A DNA stretch of 64,000 nucleotides from Escherichia coli (GTDB taxonomy: Bacteria; Pseudomonadota; Gammaproteobacteria; Enterobacterales; Enterobacteriaceae). Positions 3,621-32,902 of this stretch are shown here, piece after piece (within the stretch, counting starts at the first letter, position 1; the number at the start of each line of letters is the position of its first letter). The stretch lies in assembly GCA_025544715.1 (NCBI GenBank), contig GCA_025544715.1_4109.1. One strand, given 5' to 3'. The notes beneath the pieces were generated by a model. The model was not told the origin of the DNA, did not search any database, and was given only the letters and a program-made list of their open reading frames with translations. Both the position numbers and the translations under genes were made by a program.

Positions 3621-3784
3621 TATGCATTTCTGCATTCAACAGGATTGTCATTACTACAACAAACATTATAGCACAAACTTTAAAGTTGTCTCACTATTTT
3701 TATAAAAATATTCATTAAGTACTTAAAATATTGCAAATAACTAATCCATAAATATTTTGATAACAAATAGTTTGGTGAGGAATT

Positions 3785-8308: not shown

Positions 8309-8396
8309 TGTATTTTACTCTCCATGTTTAAATCCAATAGGTACAATCCTTGTACCATCAATGTTATTATAGCACCAAAAAGCATTTTGTCCCACG

Positions 8397-8404
8397 TATA
8401 AATA
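8397..8404 (+). promoter_or_regulatory. T4-type late promoter motif TATAAATA
   Basis: Exact TATAAATA 36 nt upstream of ATG 8440. Confidence 0.55.
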
Positions 8405-8439
8405 CATCAAATGTTCCCTTATTATGGAGAATCAAAAAG

Positions 8440-9171
8440 ATGATTGATCGTAGAATTCGATTACGACCTAAAGCCGCAGGTGCTAACTATGTATATGGTG
8501 ATTTCGGAGATAGCTCCGAACCAACACTACTTTCGTTTCTGCGTCCAACTAATGGGTTGGTTTGGACTGTAACACCAACAATTACTGAACAAAGGTCAAT
8601 TCAGTATGAAACACAGTCTCCTATACATACCAACAGTAACTATAACAACTATAAGAACACTACTAATACAGTTTTCACGATTCAGGGTGAATTTTATGCA
8701 AATACAGCAGCAGAAGCTATGTATGCATTGGCATGTGTTCATTTTATACGTTCTGTTTCATTGATGGATTTTGGTAGACAAGCTGCTTCGGCTAATAACC
8801 CCGAACTCGCAATTGCGGGTGCACCACCACCAATCTTACTTCTAAGTGGATATGGTCGTTATACATATAATGATATTCCTGTTATTTTAAAATCTTATAA
8901 TTTTACTTACCCAAATGATGTTTCTTATATTCAAGTTCCGTTGAATAGTAGCGATAGTACTTTTAATTTATCCGACATGGATAGTAGAAAATTCTTCGAA
9001 CAACTTAGAAGTACTGGGTACATGAATCCACAAGATGAAGTTTGGGTTCCACAAAAAATTTCAGTTATGTTACAACTTGAAGAACAACCTACATCTGATT
9101 ATATGACTAAAACGTTCAACCTAAATGCATTTAAACGTGGTGAACTATTACGTAAAGGAGGATTTATTTAA
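8440..9171 (+). CDS. Putative baseplate/tail protein (late gene)
   Basis: ORF track starts at TTG 8350, but the exact late promoter TATAAATA at 8397-8404 lies inside that extension; ATG 8440 with GGAG RBS is taken as the start. Confidence 0.5.
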   Translation: MIDRRIRLRPKAAGANYVYGDFGDSSEPTLLSFLRPTNGLVWTVTPTITEQRSIQYETQSPIHTNSNYNNYKNTTNTVFTIQGEFYANTAAEAMYALACVHFIRSVSLMDFGRQAASANNPELAIAGAPPPILLLSGYGRYTYNDIPVILKSYNFTYPNDVSYIQVPLNSSDSTFNLSDMDSRKFFEQLRSTGYMNPQDEVWVPQKISVMLQLEEQPTSDYMTKTFNLNAFKRGELLRKGGFI

Positions 9172-15460: not shown

Positions 15461-18400
15461 ATGTCACAACAAAAAAGGCAATCAAATTTATACGCTGGTG
15501 AGGATTGGACTCAAGTATATGAAAGTTTTTATAAAATCAATCTAACAGCTTATGATTTCGATACTATCCGTCAGAGTATGATTGATTATCTACGTGCAAC
15601 TTACCCAGACTCATTCAACGACTGGATCGAAAACGACCAGTTTATTTTTATTTTAGATACGATTTCTATGCTAGGTCAGAACTTGGCATTTCGTATGGAT
15701 TTGAACACACGTGAAAACTTTTTAGATACTGCAACTCGTCGTGCATCAGTACTAAAACTAGCTAAAATGATTTCTTACTCACCACGCCGCTCATATCCAG
15801 GTCGTGCAGTTGCTAAATTAACCGAAATTAAAACAAACCAAGATGTTCGTAATAGTTTTAATGAATCATTAAAAGATAAAATCATTCGTTGGAATGACCC
15901 GATGGATGCTAACTGGTATGAAAACTTTATTCTAGTAATGAACAGTTCATTTGTCAGTACTAACCAATTTGGTAATCCAGTCAAGCGTATTGATGTTAAT
16001 GGTGTCTCCCGTCAACTATATCGAATGAACACCATCCCAATGACAGCACCCAGTATTCCATTTATTGCAACTGTCAATGGTGAATCTATGACATTTGAAG
16101 TAGTGAATCCTGACATTACGTCTGTTGGTGTTGAAGAACGACATCCAGAACCACAAGAGCAAAAATATATTGTTTATCAAAATGATGGTAATGGATTTAG
16201 CTCACCAAATACTGGGTTTTTTGTATATTTCGTACAAGGTACATTAACATATCAAGATTATCAATATGCTATCCGTGAAGAGAACCGTATACAAGATATT
16301 AACGTTGATAATATCAACGAAACTGATGTATGGGTTCAAGAAATAAATGAAGATGGTATTGTTCGTACCAAATGGACAAAAGTTCCATCAATGGAAAGTA
16401 TTGCATATAACACTGTTAATCGTCAATTAAAAACAATTTTTGCTGTTACTACTCGTGATAAAGACCAAATAACAATTAAGTACCCAGACTCAAGAAGTGG
16501 TGTTGTTCCCCGTGGGACGTTCCGTGTATGGTATCGTGTTAGTAATGGTAAAACATATAACATTAAAACTTCTGAAATTCAAAACAAAAGCGTAAAATAT
16601 ACATATCGCACAAAAACACAGTCAAGTTATGAATCTAGTACATTGGATATACGTTTTTCATTACAATATGAGTCTGACCGTGCACAAAGTGCCGAAACTA
16701 TTGAGCAAATTAAAGCACGTGCACCACAAATGTACTATACCCAAAACCGTTTTGTCAATGGTGAAGATTATAATATAGCACCACTTAGTTTAGGAAATAC
16801 TGTACTTAAATCTAAAGCTATTAATAGAATTTATAGTGGTCAATCAAGGTTCATTGATATCAATGATCCTACGGGTAAGTATCAGAATACCGACGTTTTT
16901 AGTGATGATGGTGCATTATATCAAGAAAACACGCAATTTAATAGATCGTTATTGCTCCCAACTACAAAAACAAATGCTAGTATTGTTATTGACAATATTC
17001 AACCATTGATTGGGGAAAATGCAGTAATACAACGTTACCAAGCGTATCCATCCAATACAATTGGTATTGAAATACAACAAGCATGGACTCCTGTGTACAA
17101 TTCAAATTACACAACCAATACATATGGCAGAATTTTGGGTTCGTCTGGAACAGTGTATGGTTCGTATCAGGTAGGTACTCTTATTAAATTTTCTAATTCT
17201 GGTACTACGATATGGGCAAGTGTTGTAAGTGTGTTAGATAATGGTTTTTATGTACTAAGCACATCTGTTCCTAGTGGAATGCAAGCAATAGAGTACATAT
17301 TACCATATAGAACTAGATTTAACACAGTTGAAGTTCAGTCTATTTCTGCTATGTTGGATAAAAAAACCGATTTTGTAATTGTACATGATAAAGAAACAAC
17401 TTCATGGGTTCCAATCGAAGCAAGTACTAATGACGATACTATTGTGTATAATGGTAATGAAGTTTTAATTATAATAAATGTAAAATATACTGCTGAAACT
17501 TGGGAATTTGATGCTAATGGTATTGAATATATATTTGTGGGTGGGGATAAAGTAAGATTTTATTTTGTATCATCTAAAAAAATCACTGATATAAGTACTG
17601 GTACAGTTCAAAGTGATAAGATTGAAATTTTATCATCTAACACTACTAGTAGTAGTAATTCAGGATTGACAAGTAATATAGATTTTCAAATTTATGACAC
17701 AATTCAACAAGAGAATGGCTATCTAGATGGTTCTCGTGTTATTGTTACATCTAGAAAAGTAGATAGTAATGGTATACCGTTGGAACCAAACCAATTTAAA
17801 GAAATTGTTCCTACCTGGACAGGAACTGATGCATTAAAATATGGTGGTATTTTGGTATTTCAGGAAAATAGTGATTTCACTATATCAGTACTGTCTTTAC
17901 CAAATGATACCTTCACACTTCTTGATTCATCGTGGTCTTATACAATGGAACAAGCCTTGGCAGAGCCGAATGCATATAAAAGAACTGAATTTGTTAGAAA
18001 TAACGCAATTCGTTCAACCACATTGAGTGGATTATATAGTAAAGGTTCTGGATTTTTAGTTGGTTTTAACTATGATGGTAAATATTATTTTATTGAACAA
18101 ACAGTTGGCAATAACAATGATCGTTTGGGACAACTAATTAGTAATTTAACTTATTCCGATGATACTGGCACTGTTAGTCCTGAATTGGCTTTTTATCGTG
18201 CAATTAATAACATGGGAACTAATGCTGACGAGAATCAGAAGCTAGATTATTATGGATACAAAGATGTTACTTCACAGTACACTGTTAAAACTAATGCACG
18301 TACTAGTATAGACTTCCATTGGAAACACTATGCACCTGACGACAATAGAATTGATCCTAGTAGAACAAACTTAATTGATATGTATGTATTAACCAATTCA

Positions 18401-18922
18401 TATAAAACTGAAGTTGACGTTTGGTTGAAAAATAATGCTGTTGGTAGTATTCCTAAACCACCAACATCGGTTGAATTGAAAGATATGTTCAAAGATGTTG
18501 AACAAAAAATAGTCATTAGTGATAGTATCATTTGGCATAGTGCTGAGTACTTACCTTTATTTGGAAACAGTGCTGCTGAAGATTACAAAGCTGATTTTAA
18601 AGTAGTGAAATTACCAAACAGCACAATGAGTGATGATGAAATTCGTCAAAATGTCATAGCATTAACTAATGAATACTTCAATGTTGATAACTGGGATTTC
18701 GGTGAAAGTTTCTATTATACTGATTTGTGTACTTACATACACTCACAGTTAGGTAGACATATTAGTACTATTGTTATAGTTGCACAAAATCCAAATTCAA
18801 AATTTGGCTCTCTATTTGAAATCCCTTCACGTTCAGACCAAATATTCTTGAGTACTGCATCTGTTGAAAATGTTCAAATTGTTAACTCACTAGCTAAAAG
18901 TAATATTAATATCGGTTCTTAA
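15461..18922 (+). CDS. Large baseplate wedge protein, candidate gp6 / P2 gpJ-like
   Basis: 1153 aa ORF with AAGGA RBS; follows the gp25/W-like gene; strong terminator downstream. Confidence 0.5.
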   Translation: MSQQKRQSNLYAGEDWTQVYESFYKINLTAYDFDTIRQSMIDYLRATYPDSFNDWIENDQFIFILDTISMLGQNLAFRMDLNTRENFLDTATRRASVLKLAKMISYSPRRSYPGRAVAKLTEIKTNQDVRNSFNESLKDKIIRWNDPMDANWYENFILVMNSSFVSTNQFGNPVKRIDVNGVSRQLYRMNTIPMTAPSIPFIATVNGESMTFEVVNPDITSVGVEERHPEPQEQKYIVYQNDGNGFSSPNTGFFVYFVQGTLTYQDYQYAIREENRIQDINVDNINETDVWVQEINEDGIVRTKWTKVPSMESIAYNTVNRQLKTIFAVTTRDKDQITIKYPDSRSGVVPRGTFRVWYRVSNGKTYNIKTSEIQNKSVKYTYRTKTQSSYESSTLDIRFSLQYESDRAQSAETIEQIKARAPQMYYTQNRFVNGEDYNIAPLSLGNTVLKSKAINRIYSGQSRFIDINDPTGKYQNTDVFSDDGALYQENTQFNRSLLLPTTKTNASIVIDNIQPLIGENAVIQRYQAYPSNTIGIEIQQAWTPVYNSNYTTNTYGRILGSSGTVYGSYQVGTLIKFSNSGTTIWASVVSVLDNGFYVLSTSVPSGMQAIEYILPYRTRFNTVEVQSISAMLDKKTDFVIVHDKETTSWVPIEASTNDDTIVYNGNEVLIIINVKYTAETWEFDANGIEYIFVGGDKVRFYFVSSKKITDISTGTVQSDKIEILSSNTTSSSNSGLTSNIDFQIYDTIQQENGYLDGSRVIVTSRKVDSNGIPLEPNQFKEIVPTWTGTDALKYGGILVFQENSDFTISVLSLPNDTFTLLDSSWSYTMEQALAEPNAYKRTEFVRNNAIRSTTLSGLYSKGSGFLVGFNYDGKYYFIEQTVGNNNDRLGQLISNLTYSDDTGTVSPELAFYRAINNMGTNADENQKLDYYGYKDVTSQYTVKTNARTSIDFHWKHYAPDDNRIDPSRTNLIDMYVLTNSYKTEVDVWLKNNAVGSIPKPPTSVELKDMFKDVEQKIVISDSIIWHSAEYLPLFGNSAAEDYKADFKVVKLPNSTMSDDEIRQNVIALTNEYFNVDNWDFGESFYYTDLCTYIHSQLGRHISTIVIVAQNPNSKFGSLFEIPSRSDQIFLSTASVENVQIVNSLAKSNINIGS

Positions 18923-18955: not shown

Positions 18956-19001
18956 ATCATAAATAAATCAAATGAATGAACGAATTATATGGAGTCCAAA
19001 A

Positions 19002-22000
19002 ATGACTAATAATTTTAAGTTTCAACCTACACAGATGGCTGAAGCAGTACAGAAGAAGCTTTTTATTAAAAGATTGCCTGAGTGGATGCAAGGCTTAGAA
19101 GATATTCAAAAAGTCAGTGATGATGTTATTCAACAATGGTTTAATCCGGCTGAAAACGAATTAGTTGACGGCTATATTGGTGATATGGGTTCTCCTGCCG
19201 CTGCTGGTAATATCTTCTTACATGAAAGTACTGTAGCACGTCAACTTTATCAGTTGTCCACTGCTTACGTCTCAAAAAATGATGATTCGACAATTCGTTC
19301 AATTCAATTTTATGATGATCTAGTTGGATACATGAATCATTATGGAGCACTAACCGATAATGAAAGCCGTTTGTTCAACGGTAAGTTTTATGCATGGACT
19401 CCAGCTATTAACCCAAATAAAATGAACAATTTTAGCTCATATCTTTGGGACACTAAAAACTCTTATAATATTACTTCACCTGATTACATTGTAATGGAAC
19501 GTGGAGCACTTAATGGTAATACATGGTCACTACAAAACTTTTGGTATACTTTAGGTGAAACTTTAGAAGATGGTTCAATTTTAACTGAAGAATTAATGCA
19601 AGATTCTCGCTTTATTCGTGCCCGTGCTCCAATTATCGAATATAATAAAAATATTGAACTAATTAACTACGGTACAAAATTCCGTGGAACTGTCGATCTA
19701 TTCTCAGATATAATCAAACCTGAAGATATCGTACAAAAAGATATTAATAGTGGCATCCGTATTGATGGTATTATTCCACAAGATGGTATGCGTATTCTAT
19801 TCACCAGTATTGGTAACAATGGTGAAAATAATAGAATTTATAATGTATATGTCAAAAAAATGCAGGATGGTACTCGTGTTTATGGTTTGGCATTAGATCC
19901 AGAAGAAGAAACCGAATCACGCCCAAGTGGTGAACCTCAAGATGGTGATGTTGTTCTAATCACCAAAGGTAATGAGTATGGTAACAGTTCTATGTACTGG
20001 AATGGTTCTTTGTGGGTTCGTGCACAATCAAAAACTAGTGTTAACGTATTCCCTAAATTCCAACTTTATGATCGTAATGGTATCAAACTTGACAACAGTA
20101 CTACATATCCATCCAGTAACTTCAACGGTTCACAATTGTTTGGATTTAAAATAAATTACAACTATGCAACTGATAGTGTATATGGATATAACATCGAACT
20201 TGGTGATTACAATTATTACATGTATGAAAACTTTTTACAATCACAACGTTATACCTATGACCATCTTGGAATTGAAGTTGAAATTGATGGTTTATACTAT
20301 TATAATATTATTGATGAAAATAATGAAATGAATCTCCAAACTGATTGGGTTCGTTCAGAAGAGTACTCTAAACAATATGTAAAACAAACACCACAAGTAC
20401 AACGTACTGACATGTATCGTGTGTTCAGCACTGTTTATGATATGGAAGTTTTTAAAGAACCTGTTGATGGTATGTATGCATATGTTGTTGAAGTTGATAG
20501 AACCTATCAGTACTATAAAGCAGACCGCGAAACTTATCTAGACTGGCATCCAATCACTGGTGATGGTGTTCAGATTGTAAAATATGACCACACATTCGAA
20601 TTAGCACAAAAAGTTTTAGATAATGATTCTGACATAATTGAAGTTGTTGTTGATGGTGTTGATGTATCAAAATATACCAAAAATGTATCAAAAGGTCAAG
20701 TTCAAAGTATCACCTTAGATAGCACTGTAGATTTGGATGAAGATTCAGTTATTCAAATTAGAACTTATAGCAGTACTGTAACTCCTAATAAAGAATTAGG
20801 TGCATATGAAGTTCCAATTAACTTACAAAATAACCCATACAATTCCAATATTATATACATTAACCAAGGAGACTACACTCTACATTTTCAGGATATTATT
20901 CAAAAGAACATTACAAGTGGTTCATCTGACGATTTTAATGATTATGAAGAACGTTTAGCGAAAGGATTGGTTAATAATGGTGTTGGCACTAAAATTATCC
21001 AAAATGAAGCATCTATGCTTCCATTGATGGCACATACTGCAAATGAAGACATTGATTTGTTTGAAGCAACTATGTTTATGCAATCTGAATATTTTAGATT
21101 TATTAATAAGTTTAATACTCAAATGCTTCGTATGTATGATGAAAATCCATCAGATTTTTTGCAAAATAGTGCTGCAAATATTGTTGATTCTATTTTAACT
21201 ACTATCAATATGGGGCGTGATAGTTCATTCCCATTCTATTATGATAATGTTGGGAGTACTTCTGGATTTATTCGTGCATTTATACCACCAACACCACAGT
21301 TCTTGGGTATTCTACAAGCATATGTTCCAGAAAAAGCGACATTCCTTACTGCTGGTAGTAAACCAAGCTGTTATAACATCAGTCATACTGGTATTATTTC
21401 GAAAGCATATCGTGTCATCAATGGTGTTGATAAAATGGATGATGTTGTATATGAATTAGAAAATAGAATTTTTAATAGTATCGATAATAAATTCAAAGAT
21501 GTTGATTATGTTCCAGTTTTGAACAGTGATGATCTTTTTCCTACACCATATTTCACAAAAACCGAATATAGTGCAGAAGAGAAACAAACGCTATTGTTAC
21601 GTGGTTATATTAACTTTACTGCATCTAATGGTATCAGTAATAGTACACATGATTATGATCCTAATAATTGGAGAACTTGGAACTATACCGGAACCTATTA
21701 TGTAGTTAATGGTCAAAGTACTGAAATTCCTGCTCGTGGTTCATGGCGTGCAATTTATACTGACCAATATGGTACATATCGCCCTGCAACACATCCGTGG
21801 GAAATGTTTGGCTTTTCACAGCGTCCAACTTGGTGGAACCAAGAATATGAACCAACTGCTGTTCAAGTTGGTGAGCGTGATAGTGATGTGGTATATGTAT
21901 ATGAAGCACTTGTTATGAATGAACAAGGAGATTTAGTTCCTAGTGGTCTATGGGATATCGACGGCACTATCGGAGATAGTAGTACTGGTACTATTTTGTC

Positions 22001-25000
22001 TGGTGATCGCCGTGGACAGTATGACAAATATAAAAGATTTGGTGTACAGCCATTTAAAATCACAAAAACTGGTAATAAAACATCTTCCGGTATTGATATT
22101 TGTGTTGTTGAATATATTGCACCTGAAATTTTAGGTTTAGTGTCTGGTTCTTTAAATCATAGAGCAGAACCTTGGGCATATGGTGACATGGGTGACATGG
22201 AATTTACATACATGAACACTACATTGTTTGCATATGACCAAATGCTACTTTTGTATAAAGCTAAACCTGCACAATTTGCTAACTATTTTTGGGATACCCG
22301 AAATGACAATTTAAAAGAAGTATTCACTGATGGTTCACAATTCCTTTATGGTGATACACGTAAGCGTATTAATTTTGATAAAAACACTGTAGTTCATGGT
22401 GAAAATAACACAAGAACAATTGGTTATCAAATGTTTGTTAGTGATTATTTGATGTATCAAAATAAAAACATTACAACCAAATATGGGGATGTAGTTCGTT
22501 CTTCTTATATAAATGTTGGTCATAAAATTGGTGGTTTTACTAAAGCAGATCAGCTAACATTCAATGCTAAATCATTTGGTCTTATTTCACAAGAAAACCA
22601 AACTATTGGTCTTGTTCGCTCGAATAATATTCGTGATGAACAAATGAGTGCTATCAAAATTACTTGGAATGGTAGTGCATATCAGATTGATGGATATGAT
22701 TTAGTTGGTGCTAAATTCAAATATAAACTGCCAGTGAAAAATGGTAGAAAAGTAACTCTTAAATTAGAAAACCGCAATGTTGTTCATTATAACGAATGGA
22801 AATCTGAAGCTTCCATTGAATATGGTAAAGTTTTTAATAGTTACCAAGAAGTTTATACTTTTATTTGTGGTTATGGTGAATATCTTAAAGAACATGGCTG
22901 GATTTTTGAAGATGTAAATGATAGTGGTGCTCAACAAGATTGGAACACTATTGCTAAAGATTTTGTGATCTGGAGTCAGAATTCTCTGGTAACGGGTGAA
23001 TTTATTTCTTGTACACCAAGTGCAGCAAATGCTAAATTTGGTGCAGACTTTGGTTCAGTTCAATCTATTACACAAAATAACGGTGGTGTGTGGTCATTAC
23101 TTGATGATAACAACCAAGGTATACGTCAATATGAAATTGAAACTTCTCGTATTGGTAATATCTTTACTGTTAGAACTTTAGAATCCAATAAACGTATAGC
23201 ATTAATTCGTTTAAGTTTGTGTTCATATGAACATGCTGTTATTTTTGATGATAAGACTATTTTTGGTGATTATATCTATCAGCCAACTTATGGTTCTATT
23301 CAAGAATTAATTAAAATGTATGGCTACATTACTGGTTCATGGACTGGTCGTCTACAAGCTCCTGGATTTATTATCTTGGAAGCTGGAACACTACCATCAT
23401 TTGAAAAATTAGTGTCGGATTTCCAACATTATTATGATAGTGAAACTCCAGTAAGTGATGTACAATTACAAGAGTTGTCAAACCATTTGATTGGTTATCA
23501 ATCTCGTGATTATCTACAGCGTATGATTAGTAGTGATGTTAGTCGTGTTGATTTCTATAAAGGATTCATTCATGATAAAGGTACTAACCAAGTTTTAGAA
23601 CGTGTACTTCGTGTTTCTAAATCATATGACACTGATGAATATAAAGCATTACAAGAATGGGCATTTAAAATTGGTACATATGGTAATATTGATGGTAAGA
23701 AAAATCTTCAATTTAAATTGATTAATGACCAATTTAAACAACAACCTCAAATGGTTTCTTTTGATGTAAATGCAACTTCAAATGGTAATGGTAATCATAT
23801 TGTATACTTTGGTGAGCAGGGTAAAGATCCTCGTTGGATTACACGTCCAAATGGTAAGTTCTCATTCCCAATGCGTAGTGGAAGAAGTGAAAATATCCAA
23901 CTTCCAGATATTGGTCCAGTAACATTGGATGAAGTATCGTACACAACAAAAGATTTCAGTACTGCATATAATGACCGCATAACTTATACTAATGGTAAAG
24001 GTGAAAATCCTGAATCTGTGTGGATGTTTAAAGACGGTAATGGCTTGTGGAACATTTTTGAATTGGTTGATACTAATGTGCAAATGGTTTCTATAACACC
24101 TATTGAAAATACCGATGTGTATGCTGAACAATTTTGTAAAGTAACTTTAACTGATAATGTACCACTTGAAGATGGTGATTATTATTATTTTGTTGATGAA
24201 ACTAACTTTATGCCAGATACTTTAACAGTAGAAAGTCAATATTATACTGCTGGTTCTGATCCTAAAGTTATGGTAGTTCCATTTGACACTTCTATTGATA
24301 TTGAATTTACTGATCCAGATACACGCCCACGTTTGTATCGTTATGTATCACGTTTTGTCAGTACTGATGAACGTCAAGCTTACATTGACAAGAAATATAG
24401 TTTTAAAGCACCACAAAGTACTTTATTTGATCGTCCAACAACATATGACGAACGTACTAACATTACTGAGCTATATCTAAACGTTTATGACCCAATTAAT
24501 GGTGTTATTCCAGGTGCGGCTATGCAAAACGTAACATATACTTCACCAGTTGATCCTGCACAGTATAATAGTAATGGAGAGTTAATCCAAGCTTGGGGTG
24601 CTGATAAAGTTGGTCAAGTATGGTGGAACACTAGCACTGCATTTTATTTGGATTATACTCGTGCAATTTATGACGCAGACGGTAATGTTGACATTGATGC
24701 AACAAATGAATACAAACGTTACAACTGGGGTCGTTTATTACCACATAGTACAATTGATGTGTTAGAGTGGGTTTGTTCACCAGTTGAGCCATATAACTGG
24801 GACAAATACTGTAAAGATGTTGCTAAGAAAAACAAAAATAATACTATGTATCTACCAAGTGGAACTGCACTTGAAGATAATTATAGTACATTTTTGGAAT
24901 ATGATAGTTCAACTGATAGTTATGTGACAAAATACTATTTCTGGGTACGTGATACAATTTATGTACCACCACTACATACCAGAACAAAATCATGTACTGA

Positions 25001-28000
25001 CATTGCTCGTATTATTAAAGATCCAACACAGCTAAACATTCCTTGGTTCGCTCCAATCAATGAAAACTCGTTTATTCTTAGTAATATGCAATTTAAAGTT
25101 AATGATGATACCAGTATTTTAACTGTTTCTTATTACATGGATAGTACTGAAGTTGTTAAACATGACCAGTATCAACTATGTAAAGAAGGTGACAGCTATA
25201 ACTTTAACCCACTAATTTGGGATTCAATGTGGAACTCACTAATTGGTCAAGAAACAACTGAATCAGGTTCTGTGATTAATTTATTATATCCAGATGTTGA
25301 TAACGGTTTAGGATCAAACAAAACTTGGTTCCAAAATGTTATAGAAGCTCGTAGAAACTTTGTAGAAAGTGCTAATAATTATTATAGGTCACAAAACATA
25401 ACCACTAATAGTGTTGTTATGGAAGATGTGTTTAATGTTAAAACCACTGAAGTTAACCCGAATGAAGTTTCTTTCCGTGTATTGTCTTACAATAATGAAT
25501 TAGTTATTGCAGTTGAAAGTGATAAATTTAAAGAAAATGACGCTGTTATTTTAAGTACTAGTGGATATCTACCAAATCCATTAACTTCTAGTGCTGTTTA
25601 TTTTATTCACTTCGACGAAAATGGATATATTCAGTTAATGAATAGTCCAGCAAACGCGGGTAGTGTTGTTACTATAACGTTAGAGAACAAAGGTGAGGGT
25701 CAACATAAAATGATTAAACAATCTGATTATGTTGAATCACTAGGAACTTCATTGGACATGACTCAGTACTGGTCATATGCTGATTGGTATGATGTTGGGT
25801 ATGATAGTAACACGACTTATACTCAAGAGTCAAGCTTAGAAGATGCTAATACTAAAAACTACCAAGTTGGTGATATTATCAGAGTTACCGATAGTGAAAA
25901 CATTTGGACATTGTATATTAAATCACAATCACGCGATTCAATTTATTGGAAAGCGATTGGTCGTGAAAACAGTACAGTTGAACTCAATGATATGCTTTAC
26001 GCAGATTATAGTGTTCATAATGATAATGGTTCACTAAGCAATCGTGAAATCAACGTTCGTAAAGCACTCGCTTTACTCAAAAATTCTTTCGATTTACATC
26101 AAAGCGAAATTGTTTTTGATATGGTCAAATATGTACATGTTGAACAAAGTGTTGTGGATTGGGTATTTAAAACATCATATATCTATATTGTTGGTTTGGA
26201 ACAATCATTAGTTCAAAACTATTCAAACGATAATTTGATTAATCAAATTGTTGAATATTTTGAAGAAGTTAAACCTTATAGAACTAAAATTCGTTCACAA
26301 ATAGAGCAAAAGACATCTGATGATGATTTAATAAAAGGTCTGTGTAATGATTTAGATCCTAATGGATATATTTTCGTTGACGGTTCTTGGGTCAAAACTG
26401 AAAAAGATATTTGGGATTATGAGTACGCTCAATTTAATGAAATTACCCAAAAATGGGAACAGGTAGGTTCACTACCAAGCGATTTCATTACACCAAATAG
26501 AAGATTCCAAGAAATTGATATTATTATGCATTACGATAACATTCAATGTAAACCAAATGCAGATTTGGCAAGCATAAATGAATTAGTAAGTGTTAATAAC
26601 AAATATCAATCCAATGAAAAGGATGCTGTTAGTAACTATGAATTACAACGTTATATATATTCTTTCCCAGAATATAGTGAAGAAACTTTCGATCTTCTTA
26701 TTGCTTATCAAATGCAAATCTACTATCCAGAATTGGATGTAACACTAGGAACAGCATATGGCGTTAACCAGTGGTATAAAGACCATGCGGAAGATTTAGA
26801 AGCAACTGATGAATTTACTGCTACATTGGAGCGTGTTTATAAAGAATCAACGCAGAACGATATGTTTACTGACCTTAGACAATATGTTCAGTATAACACA
26901 TTGGCAAACCGTTTGAAACTTTATAAAGATATAAGTGATGAGAAAATTCACGATGAAGTTGGTTGTGGATTTAGTGGACTTACTTATAATGACAATCCTA
27001 GTACTAGACTTCCATTAGGCTTTTCTTCTAGTAATGATTATAACTATGGATATTTTGAAATAAGCAGTGAACTGTATCAAAAATATATTTCATTAATTAA
27101 AGATAAAAATCCTGACGCATCAGACTATGAAGTAAAAGTTAAACTTGAAGTTGAGTATGGTGTATATGTTTATCGTTATGATGAAGTCGGTGGTGATACC
27201 CGTTTCTATACTGATGCTATTCACGTATTAGCAGGTATGAGAGGGTTATTCGACAAAGACGCTACTGATAAGTACGAAAAAGCTGAAGAGATTCTTAGTA
27301 AAACCCCAATTGATATCTATGCAATTACAATGATTCCAAGAAAATATGTTTACTTAAATGTTAACGGTGTATATCAAAGTATACCTGATGAACAAAGTAT
27401 TGATGATTTCATGGAAGATTATTTTATCACAAATGGTGAAATGATTGAACTAGCTGAAATAAATCTAGATGATTTACCACTAGATCAAAATAACCCAATG
27501 TATTCAGATTATCAATATATACTTGATAGTATTACTGAAGCTAAGTACTTCAATGATATGAATGCATTTGATAACCTAGCATTAGAATCTCAAACTTCTT
27601 CAATAAAATGGGAAGTTAAAGATGATGAAGTTGATCCTTATATTGTGGATATATCTGATATAAACCCTTCTGGGCGTGATGTTGGTCAAATTAGATTTAC
27701 AGTTGATGGATATGGGTTTGACAATGTATCTCTTGTACAACTACGTGATAACAGCAGATATCAAACTGAAGGTATGGCAATTATCAATCCATATAAACAT
27801 ACAGAAGCAATTGTTAGTATTCCTTCATATGCTAAGATTGAAAATGATATTAATAAAACAACATCGAAGTTTGATGAAAAATATTTCTATCGTGTGAGAT
27901 CTATTAATAGCTTAACTGAAGCAGAAATAGTTGACAATGACCTATCTGATGGTGATAAGGTGATGATTTTCACTCCTGATGGTGAAGATTTTGTGAGATA

Positions 28001-28973
28001 TCAAAATCACACATGGGAAACAATCTTGCGTGTATCTAATATCAAAAACAATACAACTCCGATCCTATTCACTGTAAGAAATACAGGTAAAGAAACGATT
28101 GAATTGATTGATGAGAGTACTGGTGCAGTTCTCCGTTATGATAATATCACTCTTGCACAACAAAATGAGCCAGTACAGCCTCTTGCATTGAACATTGTTC
28201 GTGTTAGAACATTTGCTGACCCAGAATTTGTGAAGAATGGTATCAAATTGTACGAACAAAATAGAAATTACACAATTGATGTAATTAATTATGATGTTTT
28301 CTACGATACTACTTTAAATGGTGGTAAGTACAATGACGGAATAACACCAGATGACGTTGACGTTTGGGTAATCTCTAACGAAATATTTGATGTTGATGGA
28401 ATTACTATCGACAACGGTTATAACCTACCAATTACTGGTGCGGGAGTTCTTAGTGAATTAGCAAGAACTAAAATGACTGATAGTTTAGAAATCAACGTTA
28501 TTGAATATGATTCAAGTGTTATTCAACCGTTTAGAAATAATGAAGGTATATGGGTTTATGGATATCCAATGGTTGACGGTATGTACATCGGTGTTGTTGG
28601 TGGTACGGTTACTAACATCACAACCATTAGTGAAGAAAATACAACCTATGTTTCTCAACCTAAATCAATAAGTCCTTATAGTATTAGAAATAATGTTTTA
28701 TCCGGTTCAGCCGCGAACATGAATGATATTATATCGATTGGATATGAAAAAGTTGAAGTTAGAAATGCAAATAATTTACTTCGTGGAGTAATGTATAGTG
28801 CAGAACATGATTTTAAACTTAATACTACATATTCATTCAATGGAATTAATTTAGGTAATTATGATATGTTAAAACGTTACACACAAAATAGTTACACTAT
28901 AGATCTTTCAGTATACACTGATAGTCTACAAGTTAGTGGTAATGATATTAAAAATATATTATTAGTTAAGTAA
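19002..28973 (+). CDS. Giant virion structural protein (~3,323 aa), candidate expanded baseplate/host-recognition protein
   Basis: Uninterrupted ORF; ATG 19002 has a GGAG RBS 7 nt upstream (ATG 18972 has none); bounded by strong terminators. Confidence 0.7.
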   Translation: MTNNFKFQPTQMAEAVQKKLFIKRLPEWMQGLEDIQKVSDDVIQQWFNPAENELVDGYIGDMGSPAAAGNIFLHESTVARQLYQLSTAYVSKNDDSTIRSIQFYDDLVGYMNHYGALTDNESRLFNGKFYAWTPAINPNKMNNFSSYLWDTKNSYNITSPDYIVMERGALNGNTWSLQNFWYTLGETLEDGSILTEELMQDSRFIRARAPIIEYNKNIELINYGTKFRGTVDLFSDIIKPEDIVQKDINSGIRIDGIIPQDGMRILFTSIGNNGENNRIYNVYVKKMQDGTRVYGLALDPEEETESRPSGEPQDGDVVLITKGNEYGNSSMYWNGSLWVRAQSKTSVNVFPKFQLYDRNGIKLDNSTTYPSSNFNGSQLFGFKINYNYATDSVYGYNIELGDYNYYMYENFLQSQRYTYDHLGIEVEIDGLYYYNIIDENNEMNLQTDWVRSEEYSKQYVKQTPQVQRTDMYRVFSTVYDMEVFKEPVDGMYAYVVEVDRTYQYYKADRETYLDWHPITGDGVQIVKYDHTFELAQKVLDNDSDIIEVVVDGVDVSKYTKNVSKGQVQSITLDSTVDLDEDSVIQIRTYSSTVTPNKELGAYEVPINLQNNPYNSNIIYINQGDYTLHFQDIIQKNITSGSSDDFNDYEERLAKGLVNNGVGTKIIQNEASMLPLMAHTANEDIDLFEATMFMQSEYFRFINKFNTQMLRMYDENPSDFLQNSAANIVDSILTTINMGRDSSFPFYYDNVGSTSGFIRAFIPPTPQFLGILQAYVPEKATFLTAGSKPSCYNISHTGIISKAYRVINGVDKMDDVVYELENRIFNSIDNKFKDVDYVPVLNSDDLFPTPYFTKTEYSAEEKQTLLLRGYINFTASNGISNSTHDYDPNNWRTWNYTGTYYVVNGQSTEIPARGSWRAIYTDQYGTYRPATHPWEMFGFSQRPTWWNQEYEPTAVQVGERDSDVVYVYEALVMNEQGDLVPSGLWDIDGTIGDSSTGTILSGDRRGQYDKYKRFGVQPFKITKTGNKTSSGIDICVVEYIAPEILGLVSGSLNHRAEPWAYGDMGDMEFTYMNTTLFAYDQMLLLYKAKPAQFANYFWDTRNDNLKEVFTDGSQFLYGDTRKRINFDKNTVVHGENNTRTIGYQMFVSDYLMYQNKNITTKYGDVVRSSYINVGHKIGGFTKADQLTFNAKSFGLISQENQTIGLVRSNNIRDEQMSAIKITWNGSAYQIDGYDLVGAKFKYKLPVKNGRKVTLKLENRNVVHYNEWKSEASIEYGKVFNSYQEVYTFICGYGEYLKEHGWIFEDVNDSGAQQDWNTIAKDFVIWSQNSLVTGEFISCTPSAANAKFGADFGSVQSITQNNGGVWSLLDDNNQGIRQYEIETSRIGNIFTVRTLESNKRIALIRLSLCSYEHAVIFDDKTIFGDYIYQPTYGSIQELIKMYGYITGSWTGRLQAPGFIILEAGTLPSFEKLVSDFQHYYDSETPVSDVQLQELSNHLIGYQSRDYLQRMISSDVSRVDFYKGFIHDKGTNQVLERVLRVSKSYDTDEYKALQEWAFKIGTYGNIDGKKNLQFKLINDQFKQQPQMVSFDVNATSNGNGNHIVYFGEQGKDPRWITRPNGKFSFPMRSGRSENIQLPDIGPVTLDEVSYTTKDFSTAYNDRITYTNGKGENPESVWMFKDGNGLWNIFELVDTNVQMVSITPIENTDVYAEQFCKVTLTDNVPLEDGDYYYFVDETNFMPDTLTVESQYYTAGSDPKVMVVPFDTSIDIEFTDPDTRPRLYRYVSRFVSTDERQAYIDKKYSFKAPQSTLFDRPTTYDERTNITELYLNVYDPINGVIPGAAMQNVTYTSPVDPAQYNSNGELIQAWGADKVGQVWWNTSTAFYLDYTRAIYDADGNVDIDATNEYKRYNWGRLLPHSTIDVLEWVCSPVEPYNWDKYCKDVAKKNKNNTMYLPSGTALEDNYSTFLEYDSSTDSYVTKYYFWVRDTIYVPPLHTRTKSCTDIARIIKDPTQLNIPWFAPINENSFILSNMQFKVNDDTSILTVSYYMDSTEVVKHDQYQLCKEGDSYNFNPLIWDSMWNSLIGQETTESGSVINLLYPDVDNGLGSNKTWFQNVIEARRNFVESANNYYRSQNITTNSVVMEDVFNVKTTEVNPNEVSFRVLSYNNELVIAVESDKFKENDAVILSTSGYLPNPLTSSAVYFIHFDENGYIQLMNSPANAGSVVTITLENKGEGQHKMIKQSDYVESLGTSLDMTQYWSYADWYDVGYDSNTTYTQESSLEDANTKNYQVGDIIRVTDSENIWTLYIKSQSRDSIYWKAIGRENSTVELNDMLYADYSVHNDNGSLSNREINVRKALALLKNSFDLHQSEIVFDMVKYVHVEQSVVDWVFKTSYIYIVGLEQSLVQNYSNDNLINQIVEYFEEVKPYRTKIRSQIEQKTSDDDLIKGLCNDLDPNGYIFVDGSWVKTEKDIWDYEYAQFNEITQKWEQVGSLPSDFITPNRRFQEIDIIMHYDNIQCKPNADLASINELVSVNNKYQSNEKDAVSNYELQRYIYSFPEYSEETFDLLIAYQMQIYYPELDVTLGTAYGVNQWYKDHAEDLEATDEFTATLERVYKESTQNDMFTDLRQYVQYNTLANRLKLYKDISDEKIHDEVGCGFSGLTYNDNPSTRLPLGFSSSNDYNYGYFEISSELYQKYISLIKDKNPDASDYEVKVKLEVEYGVYVYRYDEVGGDTRFYTDAIHVLAGMRGLFDKDATDKYEKAEEILSKTPIDIYAITMIPRKYVYLNVNGVYQSIPDEQSIDDFMEDYFITNGEMIELAEINLDDLPLDQNNPMYSDYQYILDSITEAKYFNDMNAFDNLALESQTSSIKWEVKDDEVDPYIVDISDINPSGRDVGQIRFTVDGYGFDNVSLVQLRDNSRYQTEGMAIINPYKHTEAIVSIPSYAKIENDINKTTSKFDEKYFYRVRSINSLTEAEIVDNDLSDGDKVMIFTPDGEDFVRYQNHTWETILRVSNIKNNTTPILFTVRNTGKETIELIDESTGAVLRYDNITLAQQNEPVQPLALNIVRVRTFADPEFVKNGIKLYEQNRNYTIDVINYDVFYDTTLNGGKYNDGITPDDVDVWVISNEIFDVDGITIDNGYNLPITGAGVLSELARTKMTDSLEINVIEYDSSVIQPFRNNEGIWVYGYPMVDGMYIGVVGGTVTNITTISEENTTYVSQPKSISPYSIRNNVLSGSAANMNDIISIGYEKVEVRNANNLLRGVMYSAEHDFKLNTTYSFNGINLGNYDMLKRYTQNSYTIDLSVYTDSLQVSGNDIKNILLVK

Positions 28974-28974
28974 T

Positions 28975-29011
28975 AAAAAAGGAGAGCATATTGCTCTCCT
29001 TTTCTTTTTTT
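28975..29011. terminator. Bidirectional terminator between the giant structural gene and the ClpA-like gene
   Basis: A6 then GGAGAGC-atatt-GCTCTCC then TTTTCTTTTTTT. Confidence 0.85.
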
Positions 29012-31298
29012 ATGCCAGTGCTTTATCTACAGCTTTGGAACGTTTCGGTTTAATACCGATTTTACCATCAATAACATCAAATGTAATGTTACCACCATTC
29101 ACAAGTGAACCACACAACATTTCTTTAGCTAGTGGTACACGAATGTTTTGTTCAATGGTACGTTTCATTGGACGTGCACCCATGCCAACTTTTACCCCAT
29201 TTTTCGCAAGCCATTCACGTGCAGCTTTTGTCAATGTAACTTTAACATTGCGGTCTTTGACTTGTTCATTCAAACTGCCCATGAACTTATCAATGATGCT
29301 GTCAATAGCTTCACTGCTTAGGTCTTTAAACGTAACGATACTATCAATACGGTTAATGAACTCTGGTGGCAAGAATGCTTTAATTGCCTTGTCTTGTGCA
29401 GTATCACTACCGCTCATACCAATGCTACGCTTCGTTGAATCTGCCGCACCAAGGTTTGTAGTCATAATAACAGTTACGTTATTAAAATATACAGTTTTAC
29501 CTTGTGAACCAGTCAGGCGACCTTCATCCAAAACCTGTAGGAAGGTTAGTAGTACTTTACGATCTGCTTTTTCAATTTCATCAAGTAACAGTACTGCATT
29601 AGGGAACTGCTCAATTTTATCCAACAGTAAACCGTTACCAGAATCATGACCAACATAACCTGGAGGTGAACCAATTAGTTTAGAAACAGTATGTTCTTGA
29701 GAAAATTCTGACATATCAAAGCGAATCAGTTCCGCACCAGTTGCATCTGCTAATGCTTTGGTAATTTCTGTTTTACCAGTACCAGATGGTCCAACAAACA
29801 TAAATGCACCCTGAACACTAGATTTGTCACGCAGTCCTGCACGAGCTACCATCACGTTATCAACTAATTTTTGAATAGCTTCCTCTTGACCGTATACACG
29901 TGAGCGTAGTGCATCTGGTAGATTACGCATACGATCACTTTCAGTACATGCAACCACGTTGATATCCAAATTGGCAATGCCAGCAACAACTTCTTGAATC
30001 AAATTGGCAGTAATAAGCTTACTATTGTTGTCACGTGAACGAACTTTAGCAGCAGCAGCGTCCATTAGATCAATCGCTTTATCTGGGAAGTGCTTATTCT
30101 TCAGGAATTTATCACTGAGAGAAATTACAGCATCCATTGCATCAGTTGTGAACTCAACATTATGGAATTTTTCATAAGTTGGTTTCAAACCATTAACAAT
30201 TGCACGAGTTTCATCAATTGTCGGCTCAACTACATCAATTTTCATAAAACGACGAGTTAATGCACTATCTTTCTCGATATTTTTACGATATTCATCATAT
30301 GTTGTTGCACCAATTACACGAATCTCACCACGTGAAAGTGCTGGCTTAAGCATATTGCTCATGTCCATAGAACCATTACTTGCGGAACCAGCCCCAACCA
30401 TAATATGAATTTCATCAATGAAAACAATAGTATTTTCACGTTTCTTTAGTTCTTTTAGCAAATTGTCGATACGTTCTTCAAACTCACCACGATACTTAGT
30501 ACCAGCAGTCAATGCACCAACATTTAGTGAAAGAATTTCAACGTCTTTCAGGTGTTCAGGTACGTTGCCGTCAGCAATAGCTTGTGCAAGACCGTCGATG
30601 ATTTGTGTTTTACCTACACCAGCTTCACCAGTGAGAATAGCATTCTTTTTGGTCTTGCGAGCAAGAGTCTCAATCAATGCAGACAATTCTTTCTGGCGAC
30701 CAATCATAGGATCTAGTTTGCCTTCTTTTGCAAGAGCAGTTAGATTCGTTGTATAGTCTTCCAAACCTTTTTGTTTAGATGATTGCTGCTGTTGGGCCAC
30801 TTTTTTATCTCCAATCGGTTCGTCATTAATGCTTTGTAAGTTGATACCCTTATCAAGTGACTCAACGTGTTTTTGTAATGCACGTGCAGCTTCAGTACAG
30901 CTAACACCTTCTTCTTTTAACGCAGCTTCTAGTGCTGTGTTAGGGAAAGACAGACATTCGAATAGAACAAAATATGCATCAATCGAAAAATCATCACTTT
31001 TTAGTTGTTCAATAACTGATTTTTTAGAAAGCTCATGTACAACGCGATTCACTAGAAGTGAAGTACGATTCGCGTCTTCATCTTTAACACTTTTTGGTGC
31101 ATGTGGAACTGTTGTATTTTTAAGATAGTTCATCAGGCGGTTGTGCAGTTTGTCTGCATCAATGTTCATATCTTCAAATACGTTCTTGATGCTATCAATA
31201 GTCAGTACTGTGGCACTTACGTGGTCAATAGTCAAGAATGTATGACCTAGAGATGTTGCCAGTTCGTCGCTTTTTTTGAACAATTGAGTAAGATTCAT
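29010..31298 (-). CDS. clpA: ClpA-like two-ring AAA+ unfoldase (Clp N-domain, D1 and D2)
   Basis: 762 aa; D1 Walker A GEAGVGKT, Walker B IVFIDEIH; D2 Walker A GPSGTGKT, Walker [10 protein letters not shown]; collinear similarity to E. coli ClpA (recalled); IGM tripeptide (SIGMSGSD) at the position of the ClpA IGL ClpP-docking loop. Start taken as ATG 31298 with AGGAG RBS; ORF track GTG 31319 overlaps the RBS. Confidence 0.85.
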
Positions 31299-31338
31299 GT
31301 ATTCTCCTATGTGATTCACGTCACTCTAATTAATAAAC

Positions 31339-31366
31339 ATTATATCACATTCTTACGGTTTGTCTA
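31339..31366 (-). promoter_or_regulatory. Sigma70-like promoter (-35 TAGACA, 16 nt spacer, -10 TATAAT with upstream TGTGA) for the ClpA-like gene
   Basis: Minus-strand reading: TAGACA-aaccgtaagaatgtga-TATAAT; about 40 nt upstream of ClpA ATG 31298. Confidence 0.6.
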
Positions 31367-31408
31367 CAAGGTAAATAAAGATATACCCGATTTATTTTGG
31401 AGACAAAC

Positions 31409-32902
31409 ATGACATATAGAATGTGGAAAAAAGGTAGAACCAATGATTACAAGTTCATTGATTCTGCCATTGCTGAACAATACAACATTGGTGGAGTTGA
31501 CATGTGGCTTTATGCATATGTCGGTCCAAAACAAGTTGCTGACAACACTGACTTATCCTATGGAGGTGATTATACATCTTCAGGATCAGTTGTGTCAAGT
31601 ATTGGCGATTTAATTTTTGGTGACACACCAAACAGAAACTACAACCTTGAAGCTATCACACTTAGTTGTGTCTATCAAGTTCAAGAAGCAACTCCAGACT
31701 TGAAAATCCCAGGATTGTTCTTTAATTTCAACACTATGGACATCACAATCCATTATAATACAATGATGCAGCGTTTAGGTAGAAAAATCATGCCAGGGGA
31801 TGTGATAGAACTACCAAATTTACGTGATTTTGATGTATTGGGTAAAGATACAGGTCTAAACCGCTTCTATGTCGTCCAAGATGCATTTCGTACATCTGAG
31901 GGATACTCGGTTACGTGGCAACATCACATTTATAAACTTAGAGTTAAACCGCTAACCGACTCACCTGAGTACTCCGATTTACTCGGTAACAATAATTATC
32001 CTGATAATCCAGATGACCCTAATAATGGTAATGGAAATACCGATGATGGTTCGTCGGAAAACAGTAACTATGACAATGAAATGGATATCATGAACCGTAT
32101 CATCATGCAAGCTGATGATGAAGTACCCTACATTCATTTTACAAATGAACATTTGTATGATGATCGACCTGATACTGTAGATTTATCAAAATATATGCTT
32201 AATGGTTATGATTTCCCAGAAGAACCTGCCGATGGAATGTATTTTTTGAAAAAAACATACCCAGTACTCAAAGAGTTTGTTAATGATACATGGATTTCTG
32301 TGGAAGTCAAGCGTGGAACTATCTTTCCCAGAAAACCAATGGATGGTGACTTCTTCTTTAAAGAAAATGACGCAGATGTGACAGGTTATACGTTGTATCA
32401 ATATGATAAAAGTGCTAAAAAATGGTTAAATTGTGATGTAGAATATACTACCAGTGATGTTCCACCAGAAGATGTGGAAGATTTTTGTATTTTTTATAAA
32501 GAACCACACATTTATCAGTATAATGATGACAAGTGGGGGGAACCAAAGGTAACTTATGTCAATGAACCATTCACGTCCAATTGTGTATATGGTAATATTG
32601 ATTCCCAACAAGATTATCGTCCTAAAATTCCACCAGCACGAGGTACTGTCCCTGAAGGAAATATGTTCCCGACTGATGCAGTAGATGGTGACTATTTCTA
32701 TCGTACCGATTATACCCCAGTTACGTTATGGGAATTCAATGCAACTAAGAATTCATGGGTTATTTTTGATTATGGTGGAAGAAAACCGTGGGAAGGTGCA
32801 GACCTAGCACTTACACAGTTTGTAAATAGTGATAACAAAGTTCCATTACATGACGCAGTTAAACCTAATACTGTTTATCGCATACATAAGGACACAGAAT
32901 GA
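31409..32902 (+). CDS. Hypothetical protein (497 aa), probable virion/baseplate component
   Basis: ORF with GGAG RBS 6 nt upstream of ATG 31409 (ORF track begins at TTG 31397). Confidence 0.5.
   Translation: MTYRMWKKGRTNDYKFIDSAIAEQYNIGGVDMWLYAYVGPKQVADNTDLSYGGDYTSSGSVVSSIGDLIFGDTPNRNYNLEAITLSCVYQVQEATPDLKIPGLFFNFNTMDITIHYNTMMQRLGRKIMPGDVIELPNLRDFDVLGKDTGLNRFYVVQDAFRTSEGYSVTWQHHIYKLRVKPLTDSPEYSDLLGNNNYPDNPDDPNNGNGNTDDGSSENSNYDNEMDIMNRIIMQADDEVPYIHFTNEHLYDDRPDTVDLSKYMLNGYDFPEEPADGMYFLKKTYPVLKEFVNDTWISVEVKRGTIFPRKPMDGDFFFKENDADVTGYTLYQYDKSAKKWLNCDVEYTTSDVPPEDVEDFCIFYKEPHIYQYNDDKWGEPKVTYVNEPFTSNCVYGNIDSQQDYRPKIPPARGTVPEGNMFPTDAVDGDYFYRTDYTPVTLWEFNATKNSWVIFDYGGRKPWEGADLALTQFVNSDNKVPLHDAVKPNTVYRIHKDTE

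Follow-up and report, generated by a model that had tools for sequence, protein, structure and literature searches.

What does a complete ClpA-type protein unfoldase do in the baseplate and tail module of a jumbo phage, and with which peptidase would it work? The question is raised by a gene, here called clpA, that lies on the minus strand of a 64,000-nucleotide stretch of DNA (the window) from the Escherichia coli assembly GCA_025544715.1 (contig GCA_025544715.1_4109.1). The reading that we favour, and to which comparison of the sequences gives about an even chance, is that the phage-encoded ClpA works with the phage's own ClpP, perhaps with a ClpS-like adaptor, and that it does so before the late genes are expressed. 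The window belongs to a Rak2-like jumbo coliphage of the PBECO4/121Q type, with 98.5-98.9% nucleotide identity to the nearest records, which are Salmonella phage SD-6_S16 and the Escherichia phages PBECO4, 121Q, phAPEC6, slurp01, G17 and Sharanji; these phages form part of the genus Asteriusvirus, whose members are Rak2-like jumbo myoviruses of about 350 kb. The gene itself is already known: it is labelled in GenBank (121Q gp581 'ClpA-like protein', slurp01 'clpA', and also RaK2 ORF069 and CBB_235), its homologues in PBECO4 and GAP32 are annotated too, and it is discussed in PMC5259590, PMC6102473 and PMC7824862, its product being described as conserved in most Rak2-like phages (PMC6102473) and counted with the AAA+ chaperones in jumbo phages of group 2.2 (PMC7824862). 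Literature searches found no functional study of the phage ClpA, ClpP or ClpS.

The clpA product is predicted from its sequence to be a full-length ClpA-type two-ring unfoldase. The initial annotation had described a complete two-ring protein with a Clp N-domain and both Walker sets, collinear with bacterial ClpA, and the Pfam matches, the structure match and the motifs all agree with this description. Pfam recognizes Clp_N, AAA, AAA_lid_9, AAA_2 and ClpB_D2-small, the Clp_N match being weak (21.7 bits for a cutoff of 20.7, one repeat detected). The top NCBIfam model is ClpA TIGR02639, matched over model positions 4-732 of 734 with 755 bits; the equivalog cutoffs are missed for this model (993 bits) and for PRK11034 (655 against 1350 bits), and by the NCBI threshold the protein would be a divergent relative within its best family, ClpA, and not an equivalog. 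Among solved structures E. coli ClpA matches best, aligned in one collinear stretch (24-748 against 20-734, E = 1.4e-180). The alignments to ClpB, ClpC, Hsp104 and ClpV are split in two stretches, for the first three because the phage protein is devoid of a middle domain. In a BLASTP comparison with E. coli ClpA (758 amino acids (aa), against 762 in the window) the identity is 43% over 732 columns, distributed very unequally between the N-domain (18%), D1 (51%) and D2 (47%), and no coiled-coil middle domain of the ClpB/ClpC kind separates D1 from D2. The profile searches against ClpA, ClpB and ClpC place the protein in the ClpA family with the ClpP-loop insertion present, and a ClpB/Hsp104 identity is ruled out by the missing M-domain, by this insertion and by the single collinear alignment to ClpA. 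For the divergent N-domain, an AlphaFold2 model of the N-terminal 183 residues (41-sequence alignment) has a predicted local distance difference test score of 80 and eight helices, and every top Foldseek match is a Clp N-domain, the ClpA-N/ClpS complex 1r6o_B being found at a template modelling score of 0.72. The mechanical open reading frame (ORF) is single and extends over 29010..31319 on the minus strand (769 aa from GTG); the ATG at 31298, seven codons inside, is most likely the true start because AGGAG and a 5-nt spacer precede it and because G17_00342 (762 aa) uses the same ATG.

The phages that encode this ClpA also encode a ClpP. With E. coli ClpP as a tblastn probe, the Asteriusvirus genomes are matched at 36% identity over 90% of the length. 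The protein (Ecwhy1_313, gp464 in 121Q) is 231 aa long, scores 141 bits against Pfam CLP_protease and has an intact catalytic triad (Ser97, His122, Asp171). It is present in the window's nearest relatives (SD-6_S16, PBECO4 and 121Q) and across the clade, and its counts by genus (Escherichia 34, Klebsiella 10, Salmonella 8, Erwinia 8, Yersinia 4) match the genus distribution of ClpA. A search of the 64-kb window found neither a clpP nor a clpS-like gene. The Rak2-like phage ClpPs are extended at the C-terminus by some 20 conserved residues (consensus ...GxRNExGxYxVKRRGGVEEWV), absent in the E. coli and PA5oct-type ClpP, which follow the C-terminal strand lining the docking pocket; this extension is seen in the 121Q locus (L003, 6001-6696) and in the homologues L002, L005-L009, L014, L015 and L018. 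In the RefSeq record NC_025447, and in other RefSeq records, product names taken from families are misleading, gp464 being called 'head maturation protease' and both gp48 and gp581 'ATP-dependent protease'. The name given to the phage ClpP is probably a family-name artefact. A separate gp21-like prohead protease has been described in these phages (PMC11895373), and we found a T4 gp21-type prohead protease apart from ClpP in CBB, GAP32, RaK2 and Sharanji; since such a protease exists, ClpP would not be needed for head maturation. Further genes of a proteostasis type surround clpP in 121Q (L003, 208364-221056): gp473, a second, weak ClpP/S49-like protein whose N-terminus is hydrophobic, gp475, which is annotated as HslV-like and has no Pfam match, and gp457, a DnaJ zinc-finger-like protein of 75 aa.

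The third component is a ClpS-like protein of 177-181 aa (GAP32_314, gp48 in 121Q), found in 72 records with the same genus counts as ClpP. At E < 1e-3 the E. coli ClpS probe missed the Asteriusvirus adaptor, and the GAP32 protein served as a bridge to it. Its score against Pfam ClpS is 24.7 bits for a cutoff of 23; it carries a 70-residue N-terminal extension and keeps the glutamate equivalent to E79. A KTSC-domain protein (gp49, L011) adjoins the gene. The clpA, clpP and clpS-like genes co-occur in the same phage genomes, about 70 in number, with matching genus counts. Because the phage family carries its own ClpP and ClpS-like adaptor, hijacking of the host protease is not the likeliest role of the phage ClpA.

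The promoters of clpA and clpP are of one class, and each gene has its own terminator. In 121Q, clpP is preceded by TGGACA-16-TGaTATAAT, 35 nt upstream, and a hairpin lies just past its stop; in RaK2 and EJP2 the clpP promoters are of the same kind as that of clpA. The start annotated for the RaK2 clpP (L005, 2953-3702) falls within the promoter of the gene itself, and translation probably begins 48 nt further downstream. A generic sigma-70 scan of the window gives 22 sites against 24.5 in shuffles, without enrichment, and proves nothing alone because the sites are no more numerous than in shuffles. The element TGNTATAAT is enriched, with 16 occurrences for 8.1 +/- 2.5 expected and none of 100 shuffles reaching 16. 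The longer form xxGACA-16-TGnTATAAT has six copies in the window, all six intergenic and aimed at the downstream gene. Besides the copy that serves clpA, a tandem pair lies before an ATPase gene (56032-57357, minus strand), one stands ahead of the gene of a gp55-like late sigma factor (7469-8308, minus strand), followed by SbcCD-like nuclease genes, one stands ahead of a gene of unassigned function, followed by DprA-like and thymidylate synthase genes, and the copy at 3692 is upstream of an unannotated stretch. Many virion genes of the window, including the giant 3333-aa gene that converges on clpA, carry instead an ATAAATA motif. This looser motif, the late consensus published for CBB, was used here to recognize late promoters in place of the exact T4 late motif TATAAATA, which is rarer than expected in the window (3 against about 10); the three copies of the latter (1861, 8397 and 14436, plus strand) all lie directly upstream of plus-strand ORFs. 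The six-copy class looks like the signal of a pre-late regulon, and clpA is most likely a pre-late gene because a promoter class that drives the late sigma factor has to be active ahead of late transcription. Close to that sigma-factor gene, one start codon looks over-extended, the TTG-start ORF 8350-9171 (plus strand) overlapping its divergent promoter.

The same logic is found in the relatives. The clpA promoter is TTGACA-18-TGaTATAAT in RaK2 and GAGACA-16-TGaTATAAT in EJP2, and in GAP32 and XaC1 the upstream region contains TGGAACG or TGAAACA with a TATAAT-like -10; in GAP32/CBB clpA is preceded by a TGGAAC-type relative of the class. The supplement of the CBB study (Table S6) lists Porf_235 as the promoter of CBB_235 (ClpA), within a class with a TGAAACG-type -35 that is found mostly before DNA-synthesis genes and includes that of the gp55-like sigma gene (Porf_244), and it gives late ATAAATA promoters for both virion genes flanking clpA as well as a bidirectional terminator, Torf235/236 (PMC5259590). 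We infer that the xxGACA form of Asteriusvirus and the TGAAACG form of CBB are one promoter class. The CBB/GAP32 class was published as a divergent RpoD-like promoter (PMC5259590), and these phages encode an RpoD-like sigma factor (PMC11895373, PMC5259590). The clpA promoter could be read by the host sigma-70 or by this phage factor. Of the sigma70-like promoter and early expression by the host polymerase that had first been suggested, the gene's own non-late promoter stands, and the timing is reduced to pre-late. The RNA-seq paper on PA5oct, as a source of timing for a homologue, makes no mention of Clp in its main text.

The way in which ClpA would contact a ClpP can be read from the docking loop of D2. 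As first noticed, the tripeptide IGM occupies the position of IGL; it aligns with I617-G618-L619 of E. coli ClpA. These residues and I620 contact the ClpP pocket, formed by L23, L48, F49, A52, Y60, Y62, F82, I90, M92, F112, L114 and L189, plus E26 and R192 (bioRxiv 10.1101/820209). The loop is present, and its tripeptide departs at position 3 from the canonical motif (L/I/V)-G-(F/L) (PMC8745299). Among the 150 representative clusters nearest to the query, 118 have [ILVM]GF, position 3 is F in about 130, and, the window aside, M is found there a single time. In the phage clade the tripeptides are IGM, LGL, IGV, IGA, IGG, MNM, MSM, MGM, LGM, VGM, LGH and VGF (IGM in the window, IGV in RaK2, LGM in GAP32), and the canonical docking motif is not conserved. 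By column entropy, position 3 lies at the 19th percentile of D2 variability in 147 cellular representatives, and the docking glycine goes from the 8th percentile in these representatives to the 62nd in the phage clade. The ClpP-loop insertion is kept in all clade members, with a near-constant length and a hydrophobic first residue. On the side of the peptidase, the 121Q ClpP differs from that of E. coli at 11 of the 14 contact positions listed above; the changes in the phage pockets include Y60T/V/S, F82S/N/C/Y/M, A52S in all but one, F49W/Y and F112L, R192 being variable.

It is against these data that the claim of the initial annotation, a ClpP coupling that looks retained and could redirect host ClpP toward host or defence proteins, has to be weighed, and we regard docking on the host ClpP as quite unlikely. 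IGM is hydrophobic and near to the canonical motif (PMC8745299), the loop architecture is collinear with that of E. coli ClpA, the host ClpP is there from the start of the infection, and such docking would be compatible with the use of the phage ClpP too. The phage nevertheless has a ClpP of its own, with a pocket so unlike that of E. coli, and a ClpS-like protein; methionine at position 3 is a rarity among cellular representatives; and the coliphage EJP2, which infects the same host species, has IGG with all its ATPase motifs intact. Moreover, the tripeptide varies among phages of enterobacteria, bacteria in which ClpP is highly conserved. Hijacking of host ClpP by this IGM-bearing phage is possible, but the clade as a whole does not conserve such a logic.

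Pairing with the phage ClpP meets objections of its own, which must be set against the reading that we favour. The three genes are unlinked, clpP being about 85 kb from clpA in 121Q. In 97 phage sequences, position 3 of the tripeptide reaches the 92nd percentile of D2 variability, and in some clade members the tripeptide is reduced to IGG, IGA or MNM, which, judged from cellular systems, would be expected to weaken docking. Several hydrophobic or aromatic residues are gone from the phage pocket (Y60T, F82S, F112L). When tripeptide and pocket are compared in 11 phage ClpP sequences, 10 of them with a known ClpA tripeptide, the canonical tripeptides pair, at long range, with more aromatic pockets (PA5oct IGF, XaC1 VGF), but A4 (LGL) and 121Q (IGM) have identical ClpP pocket residues, and because of this identity the covariation of tripeptide and pocket is not demonstrated. 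The ClpS-like protein is without most of the residues of the N-degron pocket of E. coli ClpS (N34, D35, D36, M40, M62 and H66), and it may be an adaptor that keeps the ClpS fold and has another specificity. Finally, mass spectrometry of CBB virions detected a single peptide of ClpP (PMC5259590), which hints faintly at a role in association with the head.

The position of clpA introduces another possibility. In agreement with what was first noted, PHROG searches show that clpA is the sole minus-strand gene within a plus-strand baseplate/tail block, where the virion gene divergent from it is followed by the genes of a gp15-like tail completion protein, a depolymerase and a tail fibre. The order in which the giant gene converges on clpA, itself divergent from a virion gene of about 500 aa followed by gp15-like and NUDIX genes, is kept in RaK2, GAP32 and XaC1, and in EJP2 both flanking genes have the same convergent/divergent arrangement. 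The neighbouring 3333-aa virion protein has a length of 3332-3341 aa in GAP32, XaC1 and CBB and is always convergent with clpA; in EJP2 its homologue is, oddly, labelled D-Ala-D-Ala carboxypeptidase. ClpA could then be a ClpP-independent unfoldase or remodelling chaperone, acting alone or with phage DnaJ-like proteins while its ClpP loop drifts. Its targets would be large virion proteins, for instance the neighbouring one of 3333 aa, to be unfolded, taken apart or held, or else host complexes to be remodelled. We consider this unlikely, although the gene is fixed beside the giant virion gene in every Rak2-like lineage checked, the tripeptide is hypervariable down to IGG in EJP2, clpA adjoins dnaJ in PA5oct and Atu_ph07 (PMC6102473) and a translocase or assembly role has been suggested (PMC7824862). 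Indeed, the promoter of clpA is of the pre-late class and those of the flanking virion genes have late ATAAATA-type motifs; virion mass spectrometry of CBB detected both neighbours of clpA and not ClpA (PMC5259590); the ClpP-loop insertion is maintained throughout the clade; and a catalytically intact phage ClpP co-occurs with ClpA at matching genus counts.

The intergenic regions on the two sides of clpA are of different natures, and the bidirectional terminators that had been proposed for both were found on one side only. On the 3' side, the hairpin AAAAGGAGAGC-ATA-TTGCTCTCCTTTT separates the stop codon of the giant gene from that of clpA, with folding energies on the two strands of -16.9 and -19.1 kcal/mol (z = -5.4 and -7.7). 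Since it is accompanied by U-runs on both strands, it is assigned as a bidirectional terminator, which is conserved in RaK2, GAP32, XaC1, EJP2 and CBB. On the 5' side, a scan for hairpins and folds found no terminator in the 110-bp divergent promoter region (31299-31408). In this region the clpA promoter, TAGACA-16-TGATATAAT, stands back to back with a late-type GGTAAATAAAG facing the virion gene, an element whose CBB counterpart is Porf_234, ATAAATACGGTATA. The sole other hairpin nearby (31436-31465, minus strand, -15 kcal/mol) is followed by a U-run in one direction only; it lies within the coding sequence of the neighbouring virion gene, antisense to its first codons and just upstream of the clpA promoter, and could keep leftward read-through from reaching clpA. 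An 8-bp inverted repeat, GTTTGTCT ... AGACAAAC, is also present at 31358-31408, with a fold z-score of only about -2, one arm overlapping the -35 of clpA and the other the region of the divergent virion gene that holds its ribosome-binding site and start (GGAGACAAACATG); it may be due to chance or be a shared operator.

Could clpA be an accident of assembly or a recent loan from the host? The GC content of clpA (0.388), slightly above that of its neighbours (about 0.33), and the missed NCBIfam equivalog cutoff could raise the suspicion of a misassembled piece of host DNA, of a recent insertion derived from the host or of a gene in decay, and yet we find this scarcely credible. A 3.5-kb query across clpA and both junctions matched 64 phage records, 36 of which cover at least 80% of it. 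The same junctions recur in at least 36 independent genomes and in distant genera, four distant lineages being represented, so that a chimeric contig is ruled out. Recent capture from the host is likewise ruled out by the modest identity to E. coli ClpA and by the GC content at third codon positions (GC3), 0.26. The homologue search delineates a discrete phage clade at 54-93% identity, separated by a gap from the cellular ClpA at 45% or less; its members, mostly on contigs of about 350 kb, come from phages of Escherichia, Klebsiella, Salmonella, Cronobacter, Erwinia and Xanthomonas, and all the ATPase catalytic motifs are intact across it. This separation and the GC3 value support an old, vertical inheritance, and clpA is, as judged from these comparisons, an old core gene of the Rak2-like jumbo phages with an ancestral layout. 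The N-domain is the fastest-evolving part, with within-clade identities of 26-88% against 59-97% for D1 and D2.

The mechanism we favour, in which the phage ClpA serves the phage ClpP, would proceed as follows. The clpA gene would be transcribed ahead of the late genes from its own xxGACA-16-TGnTATAAT promoter, and ClpA would form an ATP-driven double-ring hexamer. Substrates would enter via the fast-evolving N-domain, possibly aided by the ClpS-like adaptor (the homologue of 121Q gp48), and would be threaded into the phage ClpP (the homologue of 121Q gp464) via the IGM-bearing loop of D2. The phage-borne set would thereby act on host or early phage proteins. We infer the physical pairing of ClpA with ClpP and with ClpS, as well as the timing of expression. 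A more specific form of the proposal, which is tentative and on balance somewhat doubtful, is that of a self-contained Clp machine apart from that of the host, made of ClpA, of a ClpP in which the pocket is rebuilt and the C-terminal tail conserved, and of a ClpS-fold adaptor that no longer reads N-degrons. With a ClpA-ClpP docking interface diverged from that of the host, this machine and the host ClpP, ClpA or ClpX would not titrate each other, and it would be switched on before the late genes to destroy specific host proteins, possibly of defence, or early phage proteins.

Compared with known systems, the ClpAs of the Rak2-like phages are the same gene, the window protein being 99.5% identical to those of 121Q/PBECO4, 75% to that of RaK2 and 62% to those of GAP32/CBB, and nothing material differs in position, orientation, terminator or promoter logic. 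With the E. coli ClpA of the ClpAP(S) system (PDB 1ksf, 6w1z) the phage protein shares the N-D1-D2 order, the Walker A and B motifs, the KYRG and GYVG loops and the docking helix-loop-helix; it differs from it by the divergent N-domain, by IGM in place of IGL, by a loop that is two residues shorter and by its likely partners, two divergent proteins of the phage itself: a ClpP at 34% and a 181-aa ClpS-like protein without the N-degron pocket residues. ClpB/Hsp104 and ClpC share with it the class-I Hsp100 two-ring architecture and the Clp N-domain; unlike ClpB and ClpC it has no coiled-coil middle domain, and unlike ClpB it keeps the ClpP-loop insertion. The PA5oct-like Pseudomonas phages and the Agrobacterium phage Atu_ph07 likewise encode ClpA, ClpS and ClpP (PMC6102473), ClpA and ClpS being seen in PA5oct and ClpP in its relative MIJ3. 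Their ClpA is only 38-41% identical to that of the window and their clpA adjoins dnaJ and is not in the baseplate module; the PA5oct ClpA keeps the canonical IGF, and the MIJ3 ClpP is more similar to that of E. coli (48% identity).

Table 1. Coordinates, in the window, of clpA, its control elements and the neighbouring genes.
Feature	Position	Strand	Remark
clpA-like coding sequence	29010..31298	-	762 aa, ATG 31298 to TAA 29010-29012
clpA ribosome-binding site AGGAG	31304..31308	-	5 nt ahead of ATG 31298
clpA promoter	31339..31366	-	-35 TAGACA 31361-31366, 16-nt spacer, extended -10 TGATATAAT 31339-31347
N-domain	30849..31298	-	about aa 1-150; divergent Clp N-domain, two four-helix repeats (predicted)
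D1 ATPase core	30405..30629	-	motifs conserved across phage clade
D1 Walker A GEAGVGKT	30606-30629	-	
D1 pore-1 loop KYRG	30486-30497	-	
D1 Walker B IVFIDEIH	30405-30428	-	
D2 ATPase core	29571..29792	-	motifs conserved across phage clade
D2 Walker A GPSGTGKT	29769-29792	-	
D2 pore loop GYVG	29649-29660	-	
D2 Walker B VLLLDEIE	29571-29594	-	
IGM tripeptide	29415..29423	-	aa 626-628; IGL (ClpP-docking) position of D2 helix-loop-helix
Bidirectional intrinsic terminator	28977..29003	.	common to 3333-aa gene (+) and clpA (-)
Late-promoter-like GGTAAATAAAGATA	31370..31383	+	faces virion gene (ATG 31409); not part of clpA
xxGACA-16-TGnTATAAT sites	3692, 8393, 31366, 54484, 57554, 57649	-	all on minus strand
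Baseplate hub and lysozyme	11760-14423	+	PHROG
Baseplate wedge	15461-18922	+	PHROG
3333-aa virion structural protein	18972-28973	+	phrog_10938; convergent with clpA
Virion protein	31409-32902	+	ATG 31409; divergent from clpA

In conclusion, clpA as it stands is a conserved and already annotated core gene of a well-sampled phage group, and our observations add to it a new context, the phage's own ClpP and ClpS-like adaptor that accompany it in the same genomes. They also correct the picture drawn at first, since the likely partner would be the phage ClpP and not that of the host, one bidirectional terminator replaces two, and the docking motif is not conserved in the clade. Do ClpA, ClpP and the ClpS-like protein form a private protease of the Rak2-like phages? 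If so, they would constitute a virus-encoded system of regulated degradation and a possible route for host takeover or for the removal of defence proteins, and they would offer a natural, re-engineered docking interface between an AAA+ unfoldase and its peptidase, useful for orthogonal degradation tools.

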